From IMG/VR virus record IMGVR_UViG_3300009856_000010, positions 64,001-83,155 of that record: DNA of 19,155 bases; one strand, given 5' to 3'. Below, one piece after another: positions 3,542 through 19,055 of the stretch. Both the position numbers and the translations under genes were made by a program. The notes below the pieces were generated by a model, which did not search any database, was not told where the DNA came from, and saw nothing but the letters and a program-made list of their open reading frames with translations. Positions within the stretch are counted from its first letter, which is position 1. The number at the start of each line of letters is the position of its first letter. This stretch comes from a virus (lineage: Duplodnaviria > Heunggongvirae > Uroviricota > Caudoviricetes).

Positions 3542-4420
3542 TTACCCCCTTGCATAAGTAATCCCATACTGCTGGCAGAGATAAAAGAAAGTACCAATAT
3601 TCACCATCGAGGTATTCTTTAAACACTCAGTAAATTTTTCATCCGTCTCTTCGACCGAGTAAGCCGGATTCATACTGCTACAAAGGTGAAACCAGTACCG
3701 CCCATCTTCGCCCAGACTGGATAATGCACTACCCACCGTAAACCAATCAGCATAACTGCCTGTAATATCTATTCGATGCGCGCGGATCATCTCACAACAA
3801 CGGATTACTTTTTTCAAATCCCAACTGTCATTCTGGTAAGTCGGTTTATAGCTATCCGGCATCTTTTCCACGTGCAAACCTTCATACAGGGTTGCATCTA
3901 CATTTATATAAGGTGTTTCCTCGAATGAGACGCAGCGCAACCGGCAAACGTCTCCGCAGGCTTTGTCAAGGTTGATGCCAATAGCTGAGTAATCTGCCAA
4001 TAGCTGGCGAAAATGCTGTTTATGATATTCCGGATGTGCTAACCGTATTAGGGCGAAATAGCCGGTACCACTAACCGAATGTGCCAGGTAAGCAATCTCC
4101 GGACGGCTTTCGAGAATAGGGCGAACCTGTTCTATATCCGAAAAATGTTTGTTGTCTTTACTGTCAATATCAATACAGATGAATCCCGAATGCTGGGCCA
4201 GATTAATCGCACTTCGTGTAGGTTGAAATACCCCGCTTATGGTAGCCAAAGGGAGCTTTACCTTTTCGGCATCGCGTTCCTTTTTGGTAGGCAAAGAACG
4301 GATATACCCTACCCTATCCTTATGCTTTTGGCTATTCAGGAAGCTGGTAAGCAGGGTTACACTCCCCTCTGTGTCCATGGCGTTGCGGTAAATACTGATA
4401 TATTGATTAAATATCTCCAT
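3542..4420 (-). CDS. BT4734/VirE N-terminal-like domain plus PriCT-2 (primase C-terminal 2) domain protein
   Basis: KxKLPxATISG..HSGFICIDID..SVSGTG..DKACGDVCRLRCVS matches the Bacteroidetes VirE-N/BT4734-like primase-related domain. DITGSYADWFTVGSALSSLGEDGRYWFHLCS..Y..ETDEKF..IGTFFYLC matches PriCT-2. Confidence 0.8.
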   Translation of the reverse strand: MEIFNQYISIYRNAMDTEGSVTLLTSFLNSQKHKDRVGYIRSLPTKKERDAEKVKLPLATISGVFQPTRSAINLAQHSGFICIDIDSKDNKHFSDIEQVRPILESRPEIAYLAHSVSGTGYFALIRLAHPEYHKQHFRQLLADYSAIGINLDKACGDVCRLRCVSFEETPYINVDATLYEGLHVEKMPDSYKPTYQNDSWDLKKVIRCCEMIRAHRIDITGSYADWFTVGSALSSLGEDGRYWFHLCSSMNPAYSVEETDEKFTECLKNTSMVNIGTFFYLCQQYGITYARG

Positions 4421-4656: not shown

Positions 4657-5274
4657 TTATTTCTGTTTTTTCATTTTAGTAACCGCTTTCCGAAATTCAC
4701 TTTTATCTATGGGTTCTATCCCATCTTTCAAAACTTCGTGTTTCGTCTGTACATATACATACCCGCCATGCTCCAACATGCCCGGGCGCGTATCGCTATC
4801 CTTTATGCCCAACACATGCGAAACGGTGCCCAGTGGAACAATCGGCAAGGCCTGTATACGTTTATACAGTTGTACCGCTTTTCGGGATCCGGAGATGGAC
4901 ATCACTGCCAGACATTTACCCTTACCCGGCAAAACAACTTCTTGCCTGGAAACTATTTTCCCATAAGATCCTCGCAAGGTTTCGGCCTGTTTCACAGGCA
5001 GGTACTCCGGCTTGAGTTCGACTTTAGGAGCATACGAGCGCAGTCCCTCTTCGTTATGAATAAGTTCCCAAAGTTTGGCGCTTGGCTGGTAGTCGCCATC
5101 AAACTCTACAACATCAATTCCACCAAAATCGGCTTCGGGGGATATGAGATAAGACACCGCTTGAAGACTTTGCGCCAATTTATTGGCTTCGTCATCACAC
5201 CGCCGACCTTCAGCGAATAAATCGCTTAACTTTTTCCCTATGGGGACATTGATTGATACTTTATAATAATTCAT
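4657..5274 (-). CDS. Hypothetical protein (205 aa), first gene of the left operon
   Basis: Follows a TAnnTTTG promoter and leader hairpin; A-rich start context. Confidence 0.7.
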   Translation of the reverse strand: MNYYKVSINVPIGKKLSDLFAEGRRCDDEANKLAQSLQAVSYLISPEADFGGIDVVEFDGDYQPSAKLWELIHNEEGLRSYAPKVELKPEYLPVKQAETLRGSYGKIVSRQEVVLPGKGKCLAVMSISGSRKAVQLYKRIQALPIVPLGTVSHVLGIKDSDTRPGMLEHGGYVYVQTKHEVLKDGIEPIDKSEFRKAVTKMKKQK

Positions 5275-5836: not shown

Positions 5837-7285
5837 TTATTTGGTAATATTATACATCAGCTTCACCCCTACCCCATATACATCATAAAGAACTGTCTTT
5901 ATAGTGTCTAAGTGGTACATTTCAAGGTATTCATAAAAGAACTGACTGGGAACACCAATCGTCACCGTGTTATCTTTATATCCCCGATGAATTAAAGGTT
6001 CAAACCAAACCTTATAGATAGACTCTTCAATCTTTTCTTTAATAGTTCCTAAGAATCGTTCCCACTTTTCATTTTCTTCGGTCGAATACACTTCTATATG
6101 TTCCGCTTTTATGGCACTTTTGGGTTTTGCCTTTTCAGATACATCGGCGGATTGCACAATTTTAATTTGTTCTTCCACTTTGGCCTGTTGTTCGGCATCC
6201 AAATCGTCCAACTTCCGTATGCAGCAAGTATATGCCCATGCGCGAAGGTCTTTTACTTTATCGCCTTGCTGAGAAACTTTTGTGTTCAATTCGGTAAGGA
6301 AAGTATCAAAATCATCAATAACATTCTCGTCCAACCGCTTTATGATGGCATTAATATTCGACGCAGTTTGCGCAAAGTTACTTTTCAGAAACTCCTGCAT
6401 CTTAATCTTCCGGGAAACAAAGCCCTGAATATTGGCCGCCTCTTTGCCGGCTTTCGATTGGATGATGATAAACTTCAAGGCTTCGGGTTCTCCCCGCTTT
6501 TTACCGTTCTTGTATACACGCTCAACCTCAAAATAGCAATCGGTTTCGCCGGTTTCGGCTTTAGTGCAAAGCTCTACCCGGGCATCTTCTATCACATTAG
6601 AGTAAAAAGCGCGCCAACGGGTATAAGCATCTTCCAAACGAAGCATTTTGCGCAATTCGGTAATTTTAATAGGCGGCGTGGCTCCTTGCGATTTCCATGC
6701 CGATATAAAAATATAGAGTCGCTGTACATATTTGTTTCGGGTGGAGAATACAACGTCTTTCAAGTATCGGTGTATCCCCATTGATTTAACATCCAGCAAC
6801 CGTAAAGCAATATCTTTTTTTATCTTGATATTTACAGAATTGGCATATCTTTCTTCAGGTATATACACCTCACAAAGTCCGGTATAGCGTTTGTAATCCC
6901 GCCCGTTCTTGTCTTTAACCGGTACTTCAATGCCAACAGTATGCAGCATACTCAACGATTCTTTGAGTTCCTTATATCGCCGTGGATCCGCTCCAAATTC
7001 TTTTAATGGAATTTTGAGCATAATTTCATTCTTCGAGACCTCTTCTTCTCCAAAATCCTGATTGGTAAAAAGCGGCAGCTGCTCCGGCGAACATACATTG
7101 TTTACCACCTGCATGAGCGAATCTTGCAGTTTCTCTATGATAAGCGAGAAAGTACGCCCCTGCGAGGTATTGAAATCGTATCTGGCGTATGCTACAGCTA
7201 CTGGCTGCGACAACCACGTTTGTTCGTTTATCGGGATGATATCCTTAGATATGGCTTTCTTTAGTATTTTCTTAGTCCTTACCAT
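5837..7285 (-). CDS. Rep_3-family plasmid replication initiator with a C-terminal DnaA N-terminal (domain I)-like module
   Basis: Rep_3-type segments (LSQPVAVAYARYDFN, LFEVYIPE-like beta region, KYVQRLYIFISAWK, ITELRKMLRLEDAYTRWRAFYSNVIEDARVEL). The last ~75 aa (WERFLGTIKEKIEESIYKVWFEPL..TVTIGVPSQFFYEYLEMYHLDTIKTVL) match the DnaA domain I pattern. Adjacent to an iteron cluster. Confidence 0.85.
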   Translation of the reverse strand: MVRTKKILKKAISKDIIPINEQTWLSQPVAVAYARYDFNTSQGRTFSLIIEKLQDSLMQVVNNVCSPEQLPLFTNQDFGEEEVSKNEIMLKIPLKEFGADPRRYKELKESLSMLHTVGIEVPVKDKNGRDYKRYTGLCEVYIPEERYANSVNIKIKKDIALRLLDVKSMGIHRYLKDVVFSTRNKYVQRLYIFISAWKSQGATPPIKITELRKMLRLEDAYTRWRAFYSNVIEDARVELCTKAETGETDCYFEVERVYKNGKKRGEPEALKFIIIQSKAGKEAANIQGFVSRKIKMQEFLKSNFAQTASNINAIIKRLDENVIDDFDTFLTELNTKVSQQGDKVKDLRAWAYTCCIRKLDDLDAEQQAKVEEQIKIVQSADVSEKAKPKSAIKAEHIEVYSTEENEKWERFLGTIKEKIEESIYKVWFEPLIHRGYKDNTVTIGVPSQFFYEYLEMYHLDTIKTVLYDVYGVGVKLMYNITK

Positions 7286-7367: not shown

Positions 7368-7969
7368 CGCCACCTAATAGGAACTTTTCTAAGATTAATG
7401 ATTATAGGAAGAAGAATTGTTCCGTTTTAATGGCACTTCATTTTGAATATGTTCCGCTTTTGTGGCGCTTTGAAGTATCGATCCTTATAGATCTTCCTGT
7501 TTATTGGCGAAAGTGTTCCTATTATCTGGCGGGAATCTTCCTGTTTACTGGCGAAAGAGTTCCTGTTTACTGGCGGAAATCTTCCTGTTAGGTGGCGGAA
7601 ATACGCTGTAAATGACTGTAAATAAAACATTTACATACTCCTTATATATTATATATTTCTTATAAGCCTTATAATTAAGAATAAAGATCGACCTCTTTCT
7701 TTTCTTCTCACTAATCAATACATACATGTATAAGAGATAAAACGCACCCAAACAGGAACCCTAACTAAGAACATTATATATTTAATATCGATTCGAGTAA
7801 AAAGAGTTCCGATTTTATGGCGCTTTTCATTCAAAATGGCTAAAAATGTTCCGCTTCTTTGGCGTTTCTCCTATATACGCCTTAAAAATGTTCCTGTTTG
7901 TTGGCGGAAATGTTCCGCTTTTGTGGCGCATTGAGTTTTTCTCTCGTAGAGTGTTCCAACAATTTGGCG
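7368..7969. repeat. Iteron cluster, consensus (G/C)TTCC-N7-TGGC(G/A), 13 copies
   Basis: Starts at 7368 (inverted), 7419, 7451, 7493, 7515, 7537, 7559, 7581, 7806, 7848, 7890, 7912, 7953. Five copies at exact 22-bp spacing (7493-7597); most others 41-42 bp apart (in helical phase). Confidence 0.9.
7598..7805. other. AT-rich unwinding element of the replication origin
   Basis: Very AT-rich stretch (e.g. CTTATATATTATATATTTCTTATAAGCCTTATAATTAAG) directly next to the five phased iterons and bracketed by the second iteron group. Confidence 0.7.
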
Positions 7970-7971
7970 GA

Positions 7972-8391
7972 TTAATAACCCTTCTTTTTCAGAAACTGCT
8001 CAATAGCAGTTAGCCCAAGTGACTTCAAACTCTCCCCGTCCATATCCAGTTTCATGTTCGAAAGCCGTTTGTACATCGACTTCGGCATGGCAAGATTCAA
8101 TCCGATTGTTTTCTCCACTTCGGGTTCCGCCACTTTACCGGAACTCTTCCGGGTTGTTTTTTTAGGCTTCTCCTCCCCTACTCTGCTTTCTTCCGGTTCC
8201 TTTGCTGTGTTGGTTTCTACAGCTGGCGAAAGTTCCGCTTTTGTGGCGGTTGGGGTTTCCTCTTCGACAGGTGCTGCGGGTACGGGTTGCACTACGTGTG
8301 ATACAGGCGCAGTTTCTTCCAATGCCTTTGTTATGGTTTCATCCATATAAGTTGTGGAGTTCAATGCTCTTTCTCCAAATTTCTTTGCCAT
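7972..8391 (-). CDS. Ribbon-helix-helix centromere-binding protein (type Ib ParG/ParB-like adaptor)
   Basis: Directly downstream of parA. Long P/A/E/T-rich disordered N-terminus plus a C-terminal strand-helix-helix (KTIGLNLAMPKSMYKRLSNMK..ESLKSLGLTAIEQFLKK). Confidence 0.75.
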   Translation of the reverse strand: MAKKFGERALNSTTYMDETITKALEETAPVSHVVQPVPAAPVEEETPTATKAELSPAVETNTAKEPEESRVGEEKPKKTTRKSSGKVAEPEVEKTIGLNLAMPKSMYKRLSNMKLDMDGESLKSLGLTAIEQFLKKKGY

Positions 8392-8395
8392 GGTA

Positions 8396-9199
8396 TTATG
8401 AATTTAATGGTTCTGGTGATGTTGCTAAAAACTCTTCGACAAAAGCCATGTAGTCTTTGGCTCCGTTGGATGTAGGCGCGTATGAGAGTATATTTCCATC
8501 GTATTCTTGCGACTCAACAATTTTATTATTCCTACGTATACGCGTATTAAATATATCAAAACTCTCATTTAGATCTTTAGAGTATACTTTAGCAGTACTC
8601 AATCGTTCGTCTACCATTACGAGAAGAAAACCACGAATGGTTAACTCTTTGTTAATGGTCTTTTTTACCTCAAGGAACTTAGCGGTTACATTAGCTAATC
8701 CGCGAACGGCAAATGATTCGAGTTGAATAGGTATGAGCAGGCCGGATGCTACACTCATTGCGTTGAGTGTAATAGACCCCATGCTTGGAGGGCAGTCTAT
8801 AATGATGTAATCGAAGTCATGAACGGTGTTCAGCGGTTCATCATAATGCTTATCTATTGGTTCATCGAATACAAAACAAAGTACCTGATTGGGCGACATT
8901 TGTTGACTAAGATAAGGTTCAATTCCGTTTATTTGTTCCGAACTTGGTGTGTAATAAATGCCTGTCTCGGATTTGTAAACTGGTAGTCCTTTTACGTCTT
9001 TCAACGCATCGAATAGCGTGCGACCTTTGTTTTCCAGTTGATGCCACCCGTTGCAAAACGAAGCGTAACGCTGCGAGTCAGCATCAATAATCAATACTTT
9101 AAATCCTTTGATTGTTAAGCCCATGGCAAGGTTTTGGGCTGTGGTGGTTTTGCCTACACCACCTTTATCGTTGGTTACGGCAATGATTTCTTTCAACAT
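8396..9199 (-). CDS. parA: ParA family partition ATPase (type Ib, no N-terminal HTH)
   Basis: Deviant Walker A (NDKGGVGKTTT), VLIIDADSQ, Walker B (DYIIIDCPPS), IPIQLESFAVRGL, TRIRRNNKIVESQ. Confidence 0.95.
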   Translation of the reverse strand: MLKEIIAVTNDKGGVGKTTTAQNLAMGLTIKGFKVLIIDADSQRYASFCNGWHQLENKGRTLFDALKDVKGLPVYKSETGIYYTPSSEQINGIEPYLSQQMSPNQVLCFVFDEPIDKHYDEPLNTVHDFDYIIIDCPPSMGSITLNAMSVASGLLIPIQLESFAVRGLANVTAKFLEVKKTINKELTIRGFLLVMVDERLSTAKVYSKDLNESFDIFNTRIRRNNKIVESQEYDGNILSYAPTSNGAKDYMAFVEEFLATSPEPLNS

Positions 9200-9259: not shown

Positions 9260-9536
9260 AGAATTTTAGTTTAAAAGTATAATTAAACGAATGTGTTTTT
9301 AAACATAAGTATGTTTGTATTTTAGTTTGAATGTATTAAAGTGTATATACACCTTAGTTCAATTATACTTATGTTTATATGTGACTATGTGTAAAAGTAT
9401 GAAAGTGTATTAGTGCAAATAAACTAAAGTGTATAAGGTTAAATGTGTATTTGTATTGAAGTAGTAATGTGCAAACGTTTGAAAGTTGTTTAGTCCAAAT
9501 GTATAAACGTACATAAGTATTAAAATACAGTAGTAT
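9233..9536. repeat. 8-bp-periodic array, candidate type Ib centromere/operator
   Basis: In a fixed 8-bp register, 36 of 38 consecutive units are a 4-bp AT-rich spacer plus a GTnn box (mostly GTAT/GTGT/GTTT) or the inverted nnAC box. Overlaps the parA promoter. Confidence 0.8.
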
Positions 9537-9575
9537 AAAAAAACTCCTATCGGAACGCTATCCGGCAGGAGTTTT
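9537..9575 (-). terminator. Intrinsic terminator
   Basis: AAAACTCCT / AGGAGTTTT stem with inner CGGA/TCCG pairing, followed by U7 on the minus strand. Confidence 0.8.
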
Positions 9576-9622
9576 CTGTTTCCTAATTGAAGCATGTCAA
9601 GTGTAAAAGGACTATGCAGAAA
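9537..9622 (-). ncRNA. Candidate ~85-nt small RNA
   Basis: Lies between a perfect sigma-A promoter (9628-9658) and an intrinsic terminator (9537-9575). The 5' UUUCUG can pair with CAGAAA. The 5' end is estimated, not observed. Confidence 0.55.
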
Positions 9623-9664: not shown

Positions 9665-9782
9665 AAAAAAACGGCACGGTGCGGTACAGAAAAATGCCAC
9701 CGTGAGGTTTAGGAAAATGGCACGGTGCGAGATTTGAAAGCCTCACGGTGAGGTTTTTCGATGTCGCACCGTGCCATTTTTT
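9665..9782. repeat. Five pseudo-palindromic CAC(C/G)GTG sites at exact 23-bp spacing
   Basis: Centres at 9678, 9701, 9724, 9747, 9770. AAAATGGCACGGTGCGA (9714-9730) and TCGCACCGTGCCATTTT (9764-9780) are a perfect 17-bp inverted pair around site 4. Confidence 0.85.
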
Positions 9783-9878
9783 CACCCCGTTTCTGGGCGT
9801 TCTGGCGGGGGTAAAAGTAGGGTGGGGGAGTGGAAAATCTGTGATTTTATAGAAGTTTTATAGAGAAAAACTTACAAA

Positions 9879-10187
9879 TCACCATTCGTCGTCATCTTCT
9901 TCAATTTTCTCCATATCTTCTTCAAGTATTCGCTCTTCAATGGCAAGGAAATTCCATCCTTCAGTGAGAATTTTCTCTTGTTCCTTGGAACTTGGTTTTT
10001 CTCCGTCTATCCATTGTATTTCGGCGATGGTAGATATCCATTGATCGTAAGATACAAAATAACTGTCACCTACATCGTAGAATATCGCTACGCGTGGATA
10101 AGATAATTTTATCAGAACTTCACGGCCTGTATAGTGTTGGCGATTCTCGCCTAACCACCAATGTTTATGTGTTTCAATTGGAATCAT
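9879..10187 (-). CDS. Hypothetical protein with acidic tail (102 aa)
   Basis: Flanked by 26-bp motifs; C-terminus EEDMEKIEEDDDEW. Confidence 0.7.
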   Translation of the reverse strand: MIPIETHKHWWLGENRQHYTGREVLIKLSYPRVAIFYDVGDSYFVSYDQWISTIAEIQWIDGEKPSSKEQEKILTEGWNFLAIEERILEEDMEKIEEDDDEW

Positions 10188-10281
10188 TCAATATAAATAT
10201 ATTAGTTATTGCAAAACAGTGATCTTTGAAATTCGCCATAGGCTGTGATTTTTCAGAATCCCCATAGGGCAGGGTAGGGGG

Positions 10282-10644
10282 TTAGTCCTTATCGGCATAT
10301 CGATTGCGATCTCCTTCGGACATGGTGCTTACCCGGAACTCTGCCATTTCCTGAAGCGTGGTGCGTAGTAGTTCCTCCCAATTATCTATGCGTTGCTCAT
10401 AAATATTTTTGAGTCCGCACATAGGCACTACATACACACGATACCCGTTTGCCTTGGCAAAGTATCTGTCGGACTGGCTGTATTTGGATAGGAATTCACG
10501 GCGATCCTGCTCGCGGCTTGCGTTCGGTCCGAAAATGAATACAACGCCGACTATTTGCGGTCCACGGGTTTGAACGATGAGCTGGGCACCGTTGGCGACA
10601 TCGGGATGATTGGCGAAAATATAATCTGGAGCAATGGCTTTCAT
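10282..10644 (-). CDS. Hypothetical protein (120 aa; start revised from 10746)
   Basis: The ORF-track start overlaps the upstream gene and crosses the repeat. ATG 10644 (MKAIAPDY) has an A-rich Bacteroidetes start context. Confidence 0.7.
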   Translation of the reverse strand: MKAIAPDYIFANHPDVANGAQLIVQTRGPQIVGVVFIFGPNASREQDRREFLSKYSQSDRYFAKANGYRVYVVPMCGLKNIYEQRIDNWEELLRTTLQEMAEFRVSTMSEGDRNRYADKD

Positions 10645-10723
10645 TGTTTTTCTGATTTTAAAACGGGTTAAAGATAATGCTATTTTTTCAAAATCTGTGA
10701 TATTTGAGAATCTCCATAGGAGG

Positions 10724-12187
10724 TTATTTCCTCTTTTTATTGACATTCTCCGGTATTCGCCATCCTTTGATGCGGGCTACCTGCTGATTAAACAATGCCC
10801 AAAGATCTTCGTCCCGAAACTCAAAGTGCATGGTACCTTTCTTGTATCCGCGAATACGGAAAAATTCCCAGTCATACCATTTTCCCCACTCCATCGGAAT
10901 GCCTTTAAATTTGAATTGGCCATTATCTTCCTTTTCGCCTAACGTATTGTAAGTAAATGAATTCAGGTTTTGCAGTGAATTATAGTCTTTACCTGTAAGA
11001 TTACAGAGTGCTTTAATAATATCTTCTACATCTTTTGCGTTCCGTGAATCGGTTGATATCCTTACCGTTTCTCTTTTTGTGCCATAAAAATCGCTTTCGC
11101 AAATCCAGGGAATAATAAACCGGCGGTTTACCATATAATCAGAATTTGTTTTCCAATATTCCCCACCGGTACAATTATCTTTCCATGCAAATCCGCAAAT
11201 CAAATCAAAGGCTTCTAACAAAACTTTTCCCATGCGTTCGGAATGTGTGCCTACTATGGTTTTAATCATTATATGTATGTTCTTTACGGTAAATGGTACA
11301 TGTGTTTGTTTCTCTACAAATTCATTTATCTTCTCTTTAACGCCGCGAGTAATGTACTTATCCATTTTCATATCTGAAAAAACTTTCATCCAGGCACTTT
11401 TTTGAAGTTCCTTTTTGAATTCATCCCGGGAAATCTCGGTTTGATACATGCGGTCACCTGTGCGAAATGCACCAAACTTAATCCCATATTTGGAAATGGG
11501 ATCGATTAACGCGTTTAGTTCATTGGAGAGTGGTACAACCTTATCCCACATCTTTACGGCACCCACGTAACGGCTTACAATATCGCGAACGTAATTGTAG
11601 CGAACAATGCTCTCCTGTTCGTAGGCGATTTCTTCATCGTAAGAAAAGTAGTCGGCAAATTCTTCATCGTTGGCCGTGGGTTTGTTCAGGTAGATACAGG
11701 AAACTTCTACAGAGGTTCTGCGTTCTGCATCTTCAAAGCACGGACCAAAATCTAAAGCCCGTCCATATTGGCCAATGAGTGCGCCTATTTCTTGCTGTTT
11801 TTTGGTAGATGCATTCAGTATAATAGATGAATTGCATAAGGATATGATTTGACAACCTGCCGGAGCAATCGCCCAGGCGTGTAGTATATGCGTTTCGTCG
11901 GCCGAGAATGGCGGGTTCATTACAATCATATCGATATGCGATACTTCTACGGATGTCAATGTAAGGAAGTCGTTTGCAATGAGCCGGCATTTGCCGGACA
12001 GGATGCGCGAGAGGTCTTCGTTAATCTCGCAGGCAATAACTTGTTTTGCTCCATTGGCGTTTAGATAGTCTACTATATTGCCTTTGCCGGCAGATGGTTC
12101 GAGTATGGTTTTTCCTGTAATGTCGATGCCTAAAAGCATTTCGGAAATTACATCAGATGGGGTAGGGTAGAAGTCTTTGTTAAACAT
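10724..12187 (-). CDS. Class I SAM-dependent DNA methyltransferase with DUF4942-type C-terminus (start revised from 12232)
   Basis: FYPTP, motif I ILEPSAGKGNI, motif IV MNPPF (amino-methyltransferase) and C-terminal GYKKGTMHFEF. No restriction nuclease nearby, so orphan. Confidence 0.85.
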   Translation of the reverse strand: MFNKDFYPTPSDVISEMLLGIDITGKTILEPSAGKGNIVDYLNANGAKQVIACEINEDLSRILSGKCRLIANDFLTLTSVEVSHIDMIVMNPPFSADETHILHAWAIAPAGCQIISLCNSSIILNASTKKQQEIGALIGQYGRALDFGPCFEDAERRTSVEVSCIYLNKPTANDEEFADYFSYDEEIAYEQESIVRYNYVRDIVSRYVGAVKMWDKVVPLSNELNALIDPISKYGIKFGAFRTGDRMYQTEISRDEFKKELQKSAWMKVFSDMKMDKYITRGVKEKINEFVEKQTHVPFTVKNIHIMIKTIVGTHSERMGKVLLEAFDLICGFAWKDNCTGGEYWKTNSDYMVNRRFIIPWICESDFYGTKRETVRISTDSRNAKDVEDIIKALCNLTGKDYNSLQNLNSFTYNTLGEKEDNGQFKFKGIPMEWGKWYDWEFFRIRGYKKGTMHFEFRDEDLWALFNQQVARIKGWRIPENVNKKRK

Positions 12188-12241
12188 AATAGGATGGGGT
12201 TTTAAAAAACTGTGATATTTGAGAATCTCCATAGGGAAGAG

Positions 12242-12874
12242 TTAAGCCATAACGCTATGAACGCCTGCCATTTGCAAAAAGTCTGTTTCGGTTATAACCT
12301 GTGTACCCATATCCCGAGCGCGTTGCAGCTTTGCTGTTCCGATAACGTCCGACCCGGCAATTAAAAATTGTACGGTGCTGCTAACATCGCGTATAAACTT
12401 GCCGCCGTTCTTCTTTATAAAGAACTCAAATTGTTTGCGCCCCTTGCTCAGTGTACCAGTGATACAGAATGTTTTTCCATTCAGCGGATTACCCGCCGTA
12501 GAAATATGCGCGGGGATTTCTGCCGGAGCTTCCGGCTTTTTCTTTTCCTGGCGTAGTGGGGTAGGGGTTGCATCCTGAATAAGTGTTATGCGTGTTTCGG
12601 TGATCTGCAAAAAATATTCCTCGCTAATAATAGGTATATTGAGCTCTTCTGCCTTACATACCTTTGCGGTTCCGGCGCCTTGTACGGCATCTTCGCCGGC
12701 TATCAGGCAATCTACAGAATCATTGATACGGTTGATTACTTCGCCGCCCAAGGCGGTAATGTATTCGGCAAAGTATTTGCGTTCGTGGCTAAGGGTTCCG
12801 GTGATACAGAATACGCGGTCTTTTATAATTTCGGTTGCGTGAGTTTGGTTTGAAGGGGTAAATATAGGTTTCAT
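12242..12874 (-). CDS. Stand-alone tandem BRCT protein (LigA-type BRCT x2)
   Basis: Two repeats: FCITGTLS..RK......GG......DCLIAG..AK..KA..LNIPIISEEYF and GKTFCITGTLS..RK..IKKNGGK....SSTVQFLIAG..AKLQRA...GTQVITETDF, joined by a P/E/K linker. No ligase catalytic domain. Confidence 0.85.
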   Translation of the reverse strand: MKPIFTPSNQTHATEIIKDRVFCITGTLSHERKYFAEYITALGGEVINRINDSVDCLIAGEDAVQGAGTAKVCKAEELNIPIISEEYFLQITETRITLIQDATPTPLRQEKKKPEAPAEIPAHISTAGNPLNGKTFCITGTLSKGRKQFEFFIKKNGGKFIRDVSSTVQFLIAGSDVIGTAKLQRARDMGTQVITETDFLQMAGVHSVMA

Positions 12875-12977
12875 AAGGATGTAGTTTTAATTGCTGGGGA
12901 TCCGCACGGCCGGGTTCGTAAAAGCTGTGATTTTTGAGAGTTGGCATAGGGACTATGTAGCCCCGAATGGATGTTTG

Positions 12978-13349
12978 TTAATACTCTATATAATAGATTT
13001 CTTTACCATTTGACAAATCTATTGTATAATTGCGGGTATTTGGATAAAATTTCAAACCTGATGGCTCGTGTGCGAAAATATCAGGAAAAGAATAGACTTG
13101 TACCCAATCAGTCCAAAGGCCGTTTTCTTGTTTGGTTCTTTTGTATATTTTCTTAACATCTTCATATCTGCAATCATAGATACGGTTATCTATGCAATAC
13201 TCGTCTAATTTGAATATGTTACCCCTAAATACGATTTGACTATCTTTTAATAAATCATATTTACCTGATGTTATTTGAATCTGATAAGCAGTAGCTTTTA
13301 TGTGAGATTCAACTTCTTTCACTTTATTATAAATATCTTGCTTTTTCAT
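12978..13349 (-). CDS. Hypothetical protein (123 aa; start revised from 13394)
   Basis: The upstream ATG lies inside the 26-bp repeat; ATG 13349 (MKKQDIY) has the better start context. Confidence 0.65.
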   Translation of the reverse strand: MKKQDIYNKVKEVESHIKATAYQIQITSGKYDLLKDSQIVFRGNIFKLDEYCIDNRIYDCRYEDVKKIYKRTKQENGLWTDWVQVYSFPDIFAHEPSGLKFYPNTRNYTIDLSNGKEIYYIEY

Positions 13350-13405
13350 AATTCTATTCTTTATCAAATTTCCGTGATTTTTGAGAACTCCCATAGGCAG
13401 CGGTA

Positions 13406-14686
13406 TTACACCGCTACGCTATTCAATAGATTAATTAACTCGCTTTCTTTTCGCTTGGAGAATATCCAGCCGGCGCGTTTGCTTCCTCCATCATTCAACC
13501 CGGGATTGAACCGGCCGCCTAACTCCTTTAATCTGTCTTTAATAGCTCGGGTATTTCCAAACAGGGCTACGGCCTTTTCTGAATAATCCACCAAAGAAAA
13601 GGAAGAAGGAACCGCCGGGGTTTCCGGATCCTGTGATTTTTCAGAATCTCCATAGGCGGGAGCTTCTTCAGGGGTTTCGCTGGCGGGTTGCTGCTTGCGT
13701 TCCCATTCCTTTTGCGCTGCATCAGCGGCGCGGTCCTCTTCTACTAATGCCTTTTCGATTTCGGGAGTGTAACCAACAAATTCTATACTATAATATTTGT
13801 TTCCGATAATACGGGTAATGATTCCGGCTTCGGTCAATTTATTTGCGCGCTTGTTAGCTTGTGCGTAACTGGAGTAATCAAGCGTATAGAATGTTTTTTC
13901 GCTGTAATATTTATCAACCCCAAGAAGTACACGCATGCCGTTCTTTCGTTCTATTGGTGCAAAATATGCGGTACCTAATGCTTTTCTTATTGCTTTATGT
14001 GCTGGGCCTTCCGGACGTTTAAATTCTGGAGAAACTTTCCCGCCTGTACGTCTGGATTTTGGTACCTCTATGCGATAAGGATGATCACCGTTTCCGGCTT
14101 CCAGGCTGAAATAAAAGTTTGTATCAAAATAATCTGTCATAGCATCACTATTATCATATCTATATGAATTAACATAATCAGCAATATTGTTGAATACTTC
14201 TTTGGCCCTATCAGTCAGATTTTTATTTTTGTCTATGTGATAAACATTGATGCAGTCACTTGTTGCATCTGGTTTGAACATCTCAAAATCAGCAATTAAT
14301 ATGGATACATAGATAGAACTATAATGATGCAACCGTACAGAAAACTTATAATCTGGATATGTTTCTTTTAACCATTTACGAATATTAGCGGTTATTTCCT
14401 TATTGTCTTGTCCATTATAGCGGCTACCTTTCCAGCGGTACTCATTGTAAACGTGTTCAGTATATTCCTGGGCGGTGGCTTCGTTGTAGTCGTTTTCATA
14501 ACCGGTGTACATTGTTTCAGTTGCCGCCGGTTTGGACTTCCAAACGTTATACAACTTTTCAAACTCAGCATTAATACGCTGCATGCTTTCGGTGTTTCCG
14601 CCTCTGTCAGGATGATTAGCAAGAGTTAACGCTCTATATTGTTTCTTTAAATCTGAAAGGCTGGTGATGTGATTAAAATAATTCAT
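13406..14686 (-). CDS. J-domain / LPD29-like multidomain protein
   Basis: N-terminal DLKKQYRALTLANHPDRGGNTESMQRINAEF (DnaJ HPD motif). Central IRKWLKETYPDYKFSV...YVNSYRYDNSDAMTDYFDTNFY (large polyvalent protein domain LPD29-like). C-terminal YSEKAVALFGNTRAIKDRLKELGGRFN..GWIF module. Confidence 0.8.
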   Translation of the reverse strand: MNYFNHITSLSDLKKQYRALTLANHPDRGGNTESMQRINAEFEKLYNVWKSKPAATETMYTGYENDYNEATAQEYTEHVYNEYRWKGSRYNGQDNKEITANIRKWLKETYPDYKFSVRLHHYSSIYVSILIADFEMFKPDATSDCINVYHIDKNKNLTDRAKEVFNNIADYVNSYRYDNSDAMTDYFDTNFYFSLEAGNGDHPYRIEVPKSRRTGGKVSPEFKRPEGPAHKAIRKALGTAYFAPIERKNGMRVLLGVDKYYSEKTFYTLDYSSYAQANKRANKLTEAGIITRIIGNKYYSIEFVGYTPEIEKALVEEDRAADAAQKEWERKQQPASETPEEAPAYGDSEKSQDPETPAVPSSFSLVDYSEKAVALFGNTRAIKDRLKELGGRFNPGLNDGGSKRAGWIFSKRKESELINLLNSVAV

Positions 14687-15525: not shown

Positions 15526-15556
15526 CAAATGTACGGTATAAATTTGAATTACCAAA
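15526..15556 (-). promoter_or_regulatory. Bacteroidetes sigma-A promoter of the accessory operon
   Basis: TTTG (15556-15553), 19-bp spacer, TACATTTG (15533-15526): exact consensus. Confidence 0.8.
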
Positions 15557-18169: not shown

Positions 18170-18361
18170 ACCACTCATGTATACGCAAAAGATGCGATAT
18201 GATGCGGCAGAAGGCATTGAGCCCTCGGCCATGCGTCATATCGCATCTTTTGTGTTAATACGTGAGTGGTATCCTATTAACAGGTCGGGGGCTTTTTAAT
18301 TATTAGATATAGAAAAAGAGAGATAGTTTTCATTCGGGCATGGAACTATCTCTCTTTTTTT
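18170..18361 (+). ncRNA. Candidate structured RNA or attenuator leader
   Basis: 36-bp stem (18170-18205 with 18233-18270) whose three non-Watson-Crick pairs are all G-U on the plus strand. Begins right after a promoter and ends at a strong terminator. Confidence 0.6.
18313..18361. terminator. Intrinsic, probably bidirectional terminator
   Basis: AAAAAGAGAGATAGTT / AACTATCTCTCTTTTT perfect 16-bp arms with a T7 tail. Confidence 0.8.
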
Positions 18362-18452
18362 ATGTACAGACAAGTATGTATCGTGGCATATTAAAGGTAT
18401 TCCTTCTGCACACTAATAGAATAAATACTAATTTCAAAAACATTTTAATATT

Positions 18453-19055
18453 ATGATTTATGGCTATATTCGTGTGTCAACTGACAAACAGACTGTGGAG
18501 AACCAACGTTATGAGATAAAGCGTTATTGTGAATCACGTGGATGGCAAATAGATAAATGGATATCGGAAACGATTTCGGGAACAAAAGAAGTTAAAAAGC
18601 GAAAACTTGGAGGACTAATCAAAAAGTTACAGGAAGGAGATATACTTGTTTGCTCAGAAATCAGTAGGCTTGGTCGATCAATGTTTATGATACTTGATAT
18701 ACTTAAAATATGCCTTGAGAAGGGTATAATGGTCCAAACAATCAAAGATAACTATACACTTGGTTCTGATCCGATGAGTAAGTTAATCGCTTCTGTTTAT
18801 GGTTTTATTGCAGAGATGGAGAGGAATCTTATTTCACAACGTACAAAAGAAGGTTTGAAAAGAAGGCAGGCTGAGGGAGTACAACTTGGGAGACAGCATG
18901 GATCCACAAATAGCAGTTATAAACTAACAGGTAAAGAGAAAGAAATAAGAAAGATGCTCAGTGCAGGTGTTTCAAAGACCTCTATGTGTCGATTATATAA
19001 AGTTTATCCATCTACCTTAAATAGTTTTATTGAACGCTATAATTTGACAGAATAA
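18453..19055 (+). CDS. Small serine recombinase (resolvase/invertase; resembles the Bacteroides Mpi family)
   Basis: MIYGYIRVSTDKQ (catalytic Ser), ETISGTK, GDILVCSEISRLGRS, ERNLISQRTKEGL..GVQLGR, C-terminal HTH. Confidence 0.92.
   Translation: MIYGYIRVSTDKQTVENQRYEIKRYCESRGWQIDKWISETISGTKEVKKRKLGGLIKKLQEGDILVCSEISRLGRSMFMILDILKICLEKGIMVQTIKDNYTLGSDPMSKLIASVYGFIAEMERNLISQRTKEGLKRRQAEGVQLGRQHGSTNSSYKLTGKEKEIRKMLSAGVSKTSMCRLYKVYPSTLNSFIERYNLTE

Follow-up and report, generated by a model that had tools for sequence, protein, structure and literature searches.

A co-oriented DNA motif recurs at gene ends and domain junctions in the accessory arrays of one phage clade

The final 19,155 bases of the 83,155-bp viral record IMGVR_UViG_3300009856_000010 (IMG/VR; estimated completeness 86%), which we refer to throughout as the window, contain six consecutive minus-strand genes, each of whose stop codons is followed by the same short, co-oriented DNA motif. 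This array raises the question of what the motif does: whether it serves as a joint at which genes are gained, lost and exchanged, as a signal that is bound or read when the array is expressed, or as both. An original prediction, made from the letters of the window, had offered the first two as alternatives, namely recombination sites for single-gene cassettes, or binding, promoter or processing sites for a phage factor that co-regulates the genes. The answer that we favour combines the two, and the sections of evidence on which it draws are the distribution of the motif among related phages, the level at which it is constrained, and the places at which related arrays cease to match one another.

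Read on the minus strand, the motif has the consensus CCTATGG (positions 1-7), NNN, TTC (11-13), N, GAAAWATCAC (15-24), N, G (26) and ATTTTT (27-32). A pattern search allowing up to 3 mismatches recovered 7 copies in the window, on the minus strand only (0.01 expected from shuffled sequences, with 0 of 200 shuffles reaching 7), and a separate repeat search of the window recovered an identical 8-member family, counting a degenerate copy at 9839-9864 that stands apart from these seven. The array is thereby upheld as real. Its 8 copies span 9839-13656 and are all co-oriented (Table 1), and no further copy was found on either strand of the 83,155-bp record by Hamming distance or with a position weight matrix (PWM) at a threshold well under the score of the weakest true copy, which extends to the whole record the earlier statement that none lies elsewhere in the window. 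Nine copies had been claimed where we counted eight, and the ninth may be a half-copy at about 10402-10427 on the minus strand, within open reading frame (ORF) 10282..10644, in which CCTATG, N5 and ACTCAAAAAT are followed by divergent sequence (20 of 26 positions). This half-copy, read in the CCT-ATG phase unlike the usual linker phase described below, may be a relic or chance.

Six of the copies do follow six consecutive stop codons, and the stop-to-motif gaps and recurring distances to the next ATG (Table 1) are those first reported; the description of the motif as punctuation between genes fails for the copy at 13631-13656, which is not intergenic and lies in frame within the ORF of 426 amino acids (aa). 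The conserved unit is also longer than the 26 bp originally assigned to it, since an A/T-TTTTT run adjoins and belongs to it, and comes to about 32 nt overall. At 4 of the 8 window copies, read on the minus strand, the motif is followed after 9-13 nt by a short (A/T)CCC element, GGGTT/GGGAG on the plus strand (9826-9838, 12197-12209, 12912-12924 and 13618-13630), with which the repeat unit reaches about 41 nt.

Exact-pattern and PWM scans located clusters of the motif, each of 3-13 co-oriented copies spread over 1-11 kb, in five further viral records (G001-G005), in human-gut metagenome contigs (L053, L054, L056, L059 and others), in the viral contig L152 and in one contig of a Tannerellaceae metagenome-assembled genome (MAG). 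Besides the window, at least 10 gut phage contigs carry such clusters, and the distinct copies, of which there are more than 70, include none that is inverted. The rest of the 5-Mb Tannerellaceae MAG genome yielded chance-level matches only, and the exact degenerate pattern was present in one contig among 185,579 species genomes, where its copies are spaced by genes and do not form a CRISPR array; a host-genome regulatory word and CRISPR-repeat mimicry (RNA anti-CRISPR) were both rejected by these genome scans.

Two sets of control loci, totalling about 2 Mb, were scanned with the PWM on the basis of the cargo that they share with the window. No copy was found in 80 viral loci (1.3 Mb) encoding the domain that we call DYSEK, which is the 64-aa C-terminal domain of the first array protein, and these loci contained no other punctuating repeat either; of the loci encoding the array methyltransferase (0.8 Mb), 54 of 55 lacked the motif. 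It follows that the motif is a property of the arrays of a single phage clade and of no cargo gene, and the ideas that the DYSEK domain is its partner or that it travels with the methyltransferase gene were rejected on these counts. The clade is a small one of gut Bacteroidales siphophages, to which the phage-plasmid of the window belongs, and its members probably infect Tannerellaceae. The virion proteins common to motif-bearing phages share merely 25-47% identity. The nearest relatives of the window, L053 and L152, encode DnaJ/LPD29 proteins 44-50% identical to that of the first array gene, and no DNA similarity between the window and either of them was detectable by blastn, yet the motif is kept almost base for base.

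Across arrays, the motif begins 3-50 nt past the stop codon of the preceding ORF or overlaps the end of that ORF, and it lies 6 to several hundred nt from the next start codon. This tight gap on one side and loose distance on the other tie the motif to the 3' end of the upstream module. Tandem pairs recur as well: the window pair at 10268/10242 abuts, L053 and L152 have two abutting or near-abutting pairs each, and near-tandem pairs spaced 49-57 nt occur in G001, G003, G005 and L054.

In the relatives, the motif is also found deep within ORFs of 458-681 aa, up to three times per ORF, and, in other ORFs, spanning the final 11-14 codons; roughly one copy in four is deep inside an ORF with no start codon downstream. 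All in-ORF and ORF-end copies are read in a single phase (15/15 in the first six arrays, and likewise in L053, L054 and L152). The in-ORF peptide reading is [SAT]-Y-G-x-S-E-[IK]-S-x, amid linker sequence rich in P, T, S and E, and in an alignment of six proteins the large indels start and stop at this peptide. Across 25 in-ORF and ORF-end copies, the wobble base never changes in codons 0, 1 and 6 and hardly ever does in codon 7 (motif positions 2, 5, 20 and 23). Variation that replaces the amino acid is seen at the first base of codon 0 and at the second base of codons 6 and 8, and no base of the codons flanking the motif shows constraint. In the linker frame, stop codons stand a few codons ahead of the intergenic copies, and these copies are conserved as well as or better than coding ones (PWM 42-49 versus about 36). 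The codon-position pattern and the equal conservation of intergenic copies therefore place the constraint on nucleotides and not on the peptide: the motif is a signal in the nucleic acid itself, and in one phase it can be translated as a linker that is either tolerated or put to use. The original prediction had overlooked this single-phase translation inside multidomain ORFs, along with the polyvalent-protein nature of the genes concerned.

The ATG contained in the motif was also observed in several relations to the neighbouring genes. From 12187 to 12244, the BRCT gene, its single TAA stop, the ATG within copy 4 and the methyltransferase gene share one reading frame, and the ATG within copy 2 is in frame with the 123-aa gene. 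The motif's ATG starts the downstream ORF in several relatives, and in L053 and L054 it starts a conserved 8-codon mini-ORF that ends at CAC-TGA.

Homology between arrays ends at the motif more often than expected. In pairwise blastn between arrays, 29 of 126 ends of homology blocks lay within 10 nt of a copy, against 8.7 expected (3.3-fold; maximum of 21 in 2000 permutations). For the G001 copy at 5069 (L034 coordinates), the left flank corresponds to that of G003 copy 2289 and the right flank to that of G003 copy 2673, with the 384-nt in-ORF module missing; for G001 copy 7991, the flanks correspond to those of G005 copies 4473 (left) and 5020 (right), and a 547-nt module with a 126-aa ORF is missing. 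The cleanest case of module loss is provided by L053 and L152, which are about 96% identical. The L152 copy at 6781 matches L053 copy 1847 on its left flank (97%/90 nt) and L053 copy 2177 on its right flank (95%/60 nt). L053 has a DYSEK domain of 330 nt (110 codons) between direct repeats identical over about 40 nt, and L152 has one repeat, with the DYSEK domain precisely absent and the frame kept. The window represents a third state, in which the DYSEK domain is followed by a stop codon and then by the next motif copy. The content of the relatives' arrays is thus not identical and their breakpoints are enriched at the motif, which is the outcome that the cassette model had anticipated: content varies and modules are gained or lost between copies. 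The part of that model that did not find support is a dedicated site-specific system.

The inferred crossover inside the motif is not fixed, one case placing it to the left of position 12 and another close to positions 24-26, and the methyltransferase insertion in L152 relative to L053 is bounded by a repeated promoter region of about 128 nt and not by the motif. This region belongs to a second class of repeat within the relatives' arrays, a Bacteroides promoter (TTTG, 19 nt, TATCTTTG) with conserved flanks, which we located in L053 at about 3757-3885 (reverse-complement coordinates) and in L152 at 7872-8000 and 9456-9584; the two promoter-repeat copies that flank the L152 insertion are like the PeSL cassettes of T4-type phages in the strict sense. 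Between the contigs L060 and L061 (99.7% identical, G003 type), a segment of 219 nt (L060 4490-4709) is replaced by one of 716 nt (L061 4536-5252) that is not motif-bounded, and the plasticity of the arrays therefore only partly uses the motif.

A search for proteins that might act on the motif relied on BLASTP and phmmer comparison of the records and on a Pfam scan of 20 of the larger window ORFs. No recombinase conserved beside the arrays was found by the comparison of records, in which no relative was searched by recombinase protein family. The shared proteins were those of virion genes, the LPD29 protein and proteins of diversity-generating retroelement (DGR) type that merely neighbour some arrays. 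Within the window, the sole recombinase type in the Pfam scan was the small resolvase-type serine recombinase at 18453-19055, which lies 4.8 kb from the array, has no motif-like sequence upstream of its gene and was not found in five compared relatives, whose records are incomplete and were given no protein-family recombinase search. As the enzyme of the motif it is unsupported, being distant, unshared and without a motif-like upstream site. The same Pfam scan identified no integron integrase (tyrosine recombinase) with attI and Pc adjoining the array. In the 420-nt gap upstream of the resolvase gene there are strong hairpins at 18183-18255 and 18309-18363 (arms of 23 and 20 nt, 91-95% complementary), and the words TGTACAGAC / GACCTGTC near them could be its res-type sites.

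The form of the motif was compared with that of known sites. It is asymmetric, with 6 of 8 dyad positions in a 16-nt core, and it does not consist of two inverted 12-bp half-sites around a central dinucleotide, as sites of the res, hix and gix type do. No attC-type hairpin or inverted repeat was present at any copy, and the GTTRRRY core was absent from an alignment of 61 copies. We recovered no Rfam match at any copy (cmscan, E<=1) and no literature match for the motif strings other than unrelated primers, and the claim of novelty thus held. Partial resemblances to the Tn3 res half-site, the IHF site, the geminivirus nonanucleotide, the lambda operator half-site, the RNase E RN/WUU site and a slippery U-run do not extend to the whole unit. 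Positions 8-10, 14 and 25 are free in all lineages, and position 25 is uniform per lineage (A in the window, T in L053/L152/L054, G in G004), a pattern that fits gene conversion or co-evolution with a phage-encoded recogniser.

We favour the explanation, in which we place about even confidence, that the motif is a cis-acting, strand-specific signal that marks the 3' boundaries of modules and doubles as a recombination joint for gene and domain cassettes. A module would be either a whole gene or a single protein domain, and because the copies constitute direct repeats of 26-40 nt, recombination between them would delete, insert or swap modules. The variable crossover, the asymmetry of the unit, the failure to find a conserved recombinase and the different repeat that bounds one insertion favour general homologous exchange, as proposed for PeSLs; such exchange would most likely depend on homology and on the recombination functions of phage or host, and would take place during replication or co-infection. 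With a single phase in use, one joint could yield either separate genes or in-frame domain fusions. Homology alone cannot keep 20 specified positions fixed among lineages in which no more than about 10 bases in a row are identical, the same positions are free in all lineages, and the motif is near-identical despite 25-50% core-protein identity; on these grounds we infer that a conserved sequence-specific factor also recognises the motif. In this respect a part of the original regulatory model stands, as a constraint on nucleotides that holds position by position in very divergent phages points to a factor that binds them; its promoter form is not supported. The likeliest form of the signal would be one read on the early polycistronic transcript as a linear CCUAUGG box, a 4-bp stem with loop AAAUAUCA and a U-run, with processing, decay, pausing or translational control as its candidate effects.

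The 4-bp stem would pair positions 12-15 with 24-27. It is paired in 74% of cells against 67% in shuffles, and the pair 14/25 occurs as UA, AU, CG and GC, also as GU and UG, with 0/500 shuffles reaching the observed score. No covariation was seen for a hairpin around CCUAUGG. In three relatives' copies the 3' half of the motif pairs with a nearby inverted copy into a long hairpin followed by a T-run, which is not general. A trans-acting antisense was considered and rejected: the antisense of the core occurs only right beside two relatives' copies and nowhere else in six phage records.

Several results count against the favoured explanation. The covariation pattern of the stem is suggestive only, because lineage founders could give the same pattern, and the stem itself is thermodynamically negligible and unpaired in 26% of cells; RNAfold on 38 copies revealed no shared RNA fold and RNAalifold no consensus. 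The other 97 of 126 homology breakpoints lie away from the motif. Abutting tandem copies, such as those of the window, L053 and L152 noted above, are not predicted by simple direct-repeat recombination. BLASTP and phmmer found no candidate binding factor common to all lineages, and descent from a few ancestral linker copies, without selection for fusion-competence, could account for the strict single phase.

Four other explanations were weighed against the same evidence. If the motif were a peptide-level element, one that served an ancestral polyprotein as linker or protease-cleavage peptide (YGDSEISQ) and left the intergenic copies as relics of its breakup, the single phase of the in-ORF copies within P/T/S/E-rich interdomain linkers would follow readily, and polyvalent proteins are known to undergo processing (PMC5512222). 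Such a peptide would not ignore codon structure as the motif does, with synonymous third positions invariant and amino-acid-changing positions variable, and it would account neither for intergenic copies that are conserved as well or better with stops directly upstream nor for the flanking T-run as part of the conserved unit; the codon-position pattern largely refutes this reading, which we regard as barely credible. A gene-by-gene promoter or activator box for a phage-modified RNA polymerase, by which each module would have its own transcript, is in keeping with copies that often stand 15-60 nt before start codons and with a few relatives in which TAnnTTTG follows the motif at a distance by which its TTCNG/T-run would lie at -33 (L053 3401, L152 7517), or in which, as in group D (G001, G003 and G005), a box is found 24 nt downstream. 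The promoter scan of the window placed no TAnnTTTG box after any of its copies, as had been stated, and most relatives' copies also lack this -7 box; spacing to the start codon is loose and the tie to the upstream stop codon tight, the quarter of copies deep in ORFs have no start codon downstream to serve, and no phage RNA polymerase or sigma factor was identified in the between-record homology comparisons, most ORFs outside the window not having been family-scanned. We consider this explanation very unlikely. A purely regulatory role, in which the motif is an operator or an RNA-binding or processing site (RegB-like shut-off, nut- or RAT-like antitermination, translational control) of an early counter-defence operon and the breakpoints are an inert by-product of repeats, agrees better with the confinement of the motif to one operon, its strict co-orientation with transcription and its conservation in primary sequence. 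The terminator-like hairpin formed by the 3' half in three relatives' copies is one that a bound factor could oppose, and in group D and in G004 the array operon, which holds small Cro-like genes, is divergent from a Cro/C1-type helix-turn-helix (HTH) repressor gene and is therefore early. Regulation of this kind makes no prediction of placement at module and domain boundaries, of a single in-ORF phase or of in-frame domain gain and loss in near-identical phages, and the absence of the motif from the rest of the one host-side genome searched means that it is not a general host regulatory word there. We think that a purely regulatory role is improbable.

The remaining explanation is a dedicated site-specific cassette system, in effect a domain-level integron, in which the motif would be both recognition and crossover site for a phage-encoded recombinase or a host recombinase with few targets, and modules would be excised and reinserted as circles. 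Recognition by an enzyme would explain the positional conservation, and the fixed phase would keep in-ORF insertions in frame. The layout resembles that of attC, with co-oriented sites at the 3' ends of promoterless genes behind one promoter, and cassette content differs at the sites between relatives. The conserved and the universally free positions (8-10, 14 and 25), the persistence of the motif between phages without other detectable DNA similarity, the lineage-specific base at position 25, which co-evolution with a recogniser would give, and a short imperfect dyad (12-15/24-27) around an AT-rich centre would all be at home in such a system. Against it stand the comparison of records described above, in which no conserved adjacent recombinase was found and no recombinase-family search of the relatives was made, the distant and unshared window resolvase without a motif-like site upstream, the lack in the motif of tyrosine- or serine-recombinase core-site arms and of an attC-type hairpin, the inferred crossovers in different parts of the motif, the insertion bounded by a different repeat, and the L053 repeats, whose identity over about 40 nt is sufficient for homologous exchange. 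We judge such a system unlikely. The broader proposition that would go with it, a phase-locked translatable recombination site by which dedicated machinery moves genes and domains and assembles or disassembles polyvalent counter-defence proteins, like exon shuffling with symmetric intron phases, is to us equally doubtful.

The array itself was examined for its transcription and cargo (Table 1). The window contains a Rep3-type initiator (5837-7285), ParA (8396-9199), a lysis block and the serine recombinase (plus strand), and the element is therefore of the phage-plasmid type of Bacteroidota phage. Upstream of the array there is a sole consensus promoter, of Bacteroides type, the next consensus Bacteroides promoters in the window being at about 9635 and about 9237, and a palindrome that is likely an operon-end terminator closes the gene block. 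From this single promoter, the absence of boxes after the motif copies and the closing palindrome, the six modules and two small upstream genes (orf75 and orf109) are predicted to form one operon.

The cargo of the array belongs to the polyvalent-protein repertoire, in which domains occur fused or solo. Matches to the catalytic part of the methyltransferase lie in internal domains of phage proteins 1,400-3,900 aa long, LPD29 also occurs in relatives' proteins of 652, 681 and 586 aa, and the DYSEK domain also exists as a solo viral protein of 66-67 aa. The cargo differs widely among arrays and includes DUF6908, a pyrimidine-dimer glycosylase, HTH proteins, YbjQ-like proteins and HA-domain proteins. 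One cargo protein of L152 (14675-15625; 316 aa) has tandem N-terminal HTH domains of resolvase/transposase type (HTH_7, HTH_Tnp_ISL3), without a catalytic domain and without a homologue in the phage of the window.

Table 1. Positions of the motif copies, array genes and flanking transcription elements in the window
Feature	Position	Strand	Description
Motif copy 1	13631..13656	-	In frame within DnaJ/LPD29 ORF 13406..14686, read AYGDSEKSQ, between the LPD29 part and the C-terminal 64-aa DYSEK domain
Motif copy 2	13372..13397	-	Begins 8 nt past stop of ORF 13406..14686; ends 22 nt before ATG at 13349
Motif copy 3	12925..12950	-	Begins 27 nt past stop of 123-aa ORF; ends 50 nt before ATG of BRCT gene
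Motif copy 4	12210..12235	-	Begins 6 nt past BRCT stop; ends 22 nt before methyltransferase ATG
Motif copy 5	10695..10720	-	Identical to copy 4 over 26 nt; begins 3 nt past methyltransferase stop; ends 50 nt before next ATG
Motif copy 6	10243..10268	-	Begins 13 nt past stop of 120-aa ORF; first member of abutting tandem pair
Motif copy 7	10217..10242	-	3 mismatches; second member of tandem pair; ends 29 nt before ATG at 10187
Motif copy 8	9839..9864	-	Degenerate, PWM score 25 bits; begins 14 nt past stop of last gene; closes array
Module 1	13406..14686	-	426-aa protein with DnaJ domain, LPD29 ("large polyvalent protein-associated domain 29") and C-terminal 64-aa DYSEK domain
Module 2	12978..13349	-	123-aa protein, no family match
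Module 3	12242..12874	-	210-aa protein, two BRCT domains
Module 4	10724..12187	-	487-aa N6-adenine-type DNA methyltransferase with DUF4942 (phrog_32703)
Module 5	10282..10644	-	120-aa protein, no family match; contains motif half-copy
Module 6	9879..10187	-	102-aa acidic protein, no family match
Bacteroides-type promoter	15526..15556	-	TTTG, 19 nt, TACATTTG; sole consensus promoter upstream of array
Palindrome	9714..9780		33-nt arms, then minus-strand T-run; closes gene block

The closest functional likeness to the motif is found in the promoter-early/stem-loop (PeSL) cassettes of T4-type phages (Arbiol et al. 2010, PMC2839356; Comeau et al. 2014, PMC4122927). Both are short, conserved, transcription-oriented repeats between non-essential accessory genes of a hyperplastic region, both contain the endpoints of insertions, deletions and replacements, and for both the model is a cis-element that doubles as a substrate for homologous recombination. 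A PeSL is made up of a sigma-70 promoter and a terminator hairpin, whereas the window motif has neither; and PeSLs are confined to intergenic DNA, whereas in multidomain ORFs the motif is translated, in a fixed phase, and joins domains as well as genes. Mini-circles have been shown for PeSLs. The attC arrays of integrons and clusters of attC sites lacking integrases (CALINs), which have been reported in phages too (Qi et al. 2023, PMC9892861), are alike in having co-oriented sites at the 3' ends of promoterless genes behind a common promoter, in content that varies at the sites between relatives and in cargo of defence or counter-defence type. An attC site is an imperfect-palindrome hairpin of 57-141 nt with a GTTRRRY core and is accompanied by IntI and attI; the motif, of 26-32 nt, is asymmetric, has none of these, has no fixed crossover and can stand inside an ORF. 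The glycine-rich motifs of the T-even tail-fibre adhesin gp38 (Trojet et al. 2011, PMC3157838, citing Tetart et al. 1998) are similar in that conserved blocks within an ORF delimit variable segments and recombination in or near the blocks gives chimeric proteins. They are conserved as a structural core of the protein, whereas the window motif is constrained on nucleotides and occurs outside ORFs too. The motif belongs to none of the PeSL, attC and T-even adhesin-motif families.

There is also a likeness to elements of early or immunity control in temperate phages and phage-plasmids. The C1 operators of P1 are asymmetric and multi-copy, overlap promoters and are distributed in both orientations around the genome, and the nut sites of lambda consist of boxA and a boxB hairpin and occur once per operon near the promoter. 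The motif resembles them as an asymmetric bipartite element whose linear box and small stem-loop recall boxA/boxB; it differs in having 6-13 copies per operon, at module ends, with none at a promoter in the window.

The polyvalent proteins of phages and conjugative elements, whose domains occur fused and solo, were described by Iyer et al. 2017 (PMC5512222), who proposed that they are pieced together from solo versions. That paper names no DNA-level mechanism for the joining of domains, and the words "linker" and "shuffling" are absent from its text. The window modules are like this repertoire in their LPD29 and in the adenine methyltransferase that matches domains of 1,400-3,900-aa phage proteins, and the motif would be a DNA-level mechanism for polyvalent-protein assembly in one clade. 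What is new here is the motif itself, its dual life as intergenic signal and phase-locked linker, and its link to domain gain and loss of the polyvalent type. Extreme mosaicism is a known trait of phage polyvalent proteins and anti-defence islands, but the way in which their domains join, split and exchange is not known; one short sequence that stands at the gene ends of arrays and at variable domain junctions, is readable as a linker and separates natural variants that differ by a precise in-frame domain module offers a concrete DNA-level route from solo genes to multidomain effectors and back. In these uncultured phages of gut Bacteroidales, the motif also offers a simple sequence tag with which to find accessory (counter-defence) cargo. 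If a specific factor binds it, that factor would be a new early-operon regulator, in a phylum whose expression signals depart from textbook ones.

Lastly, the surroundings of the arrays were compared beyond the last motif copy. Homologues of two small proteins from the DGR region of the phage studied here (G000 38616-39603, outside the window) lie convergent and directly past the last motif copy in four other lineages (L152 16967-17365, L051 6345-7154, L056 3039-3799 and L054 1676-2023), and the arrays of those four lineages therefore abut a DGR-type module.

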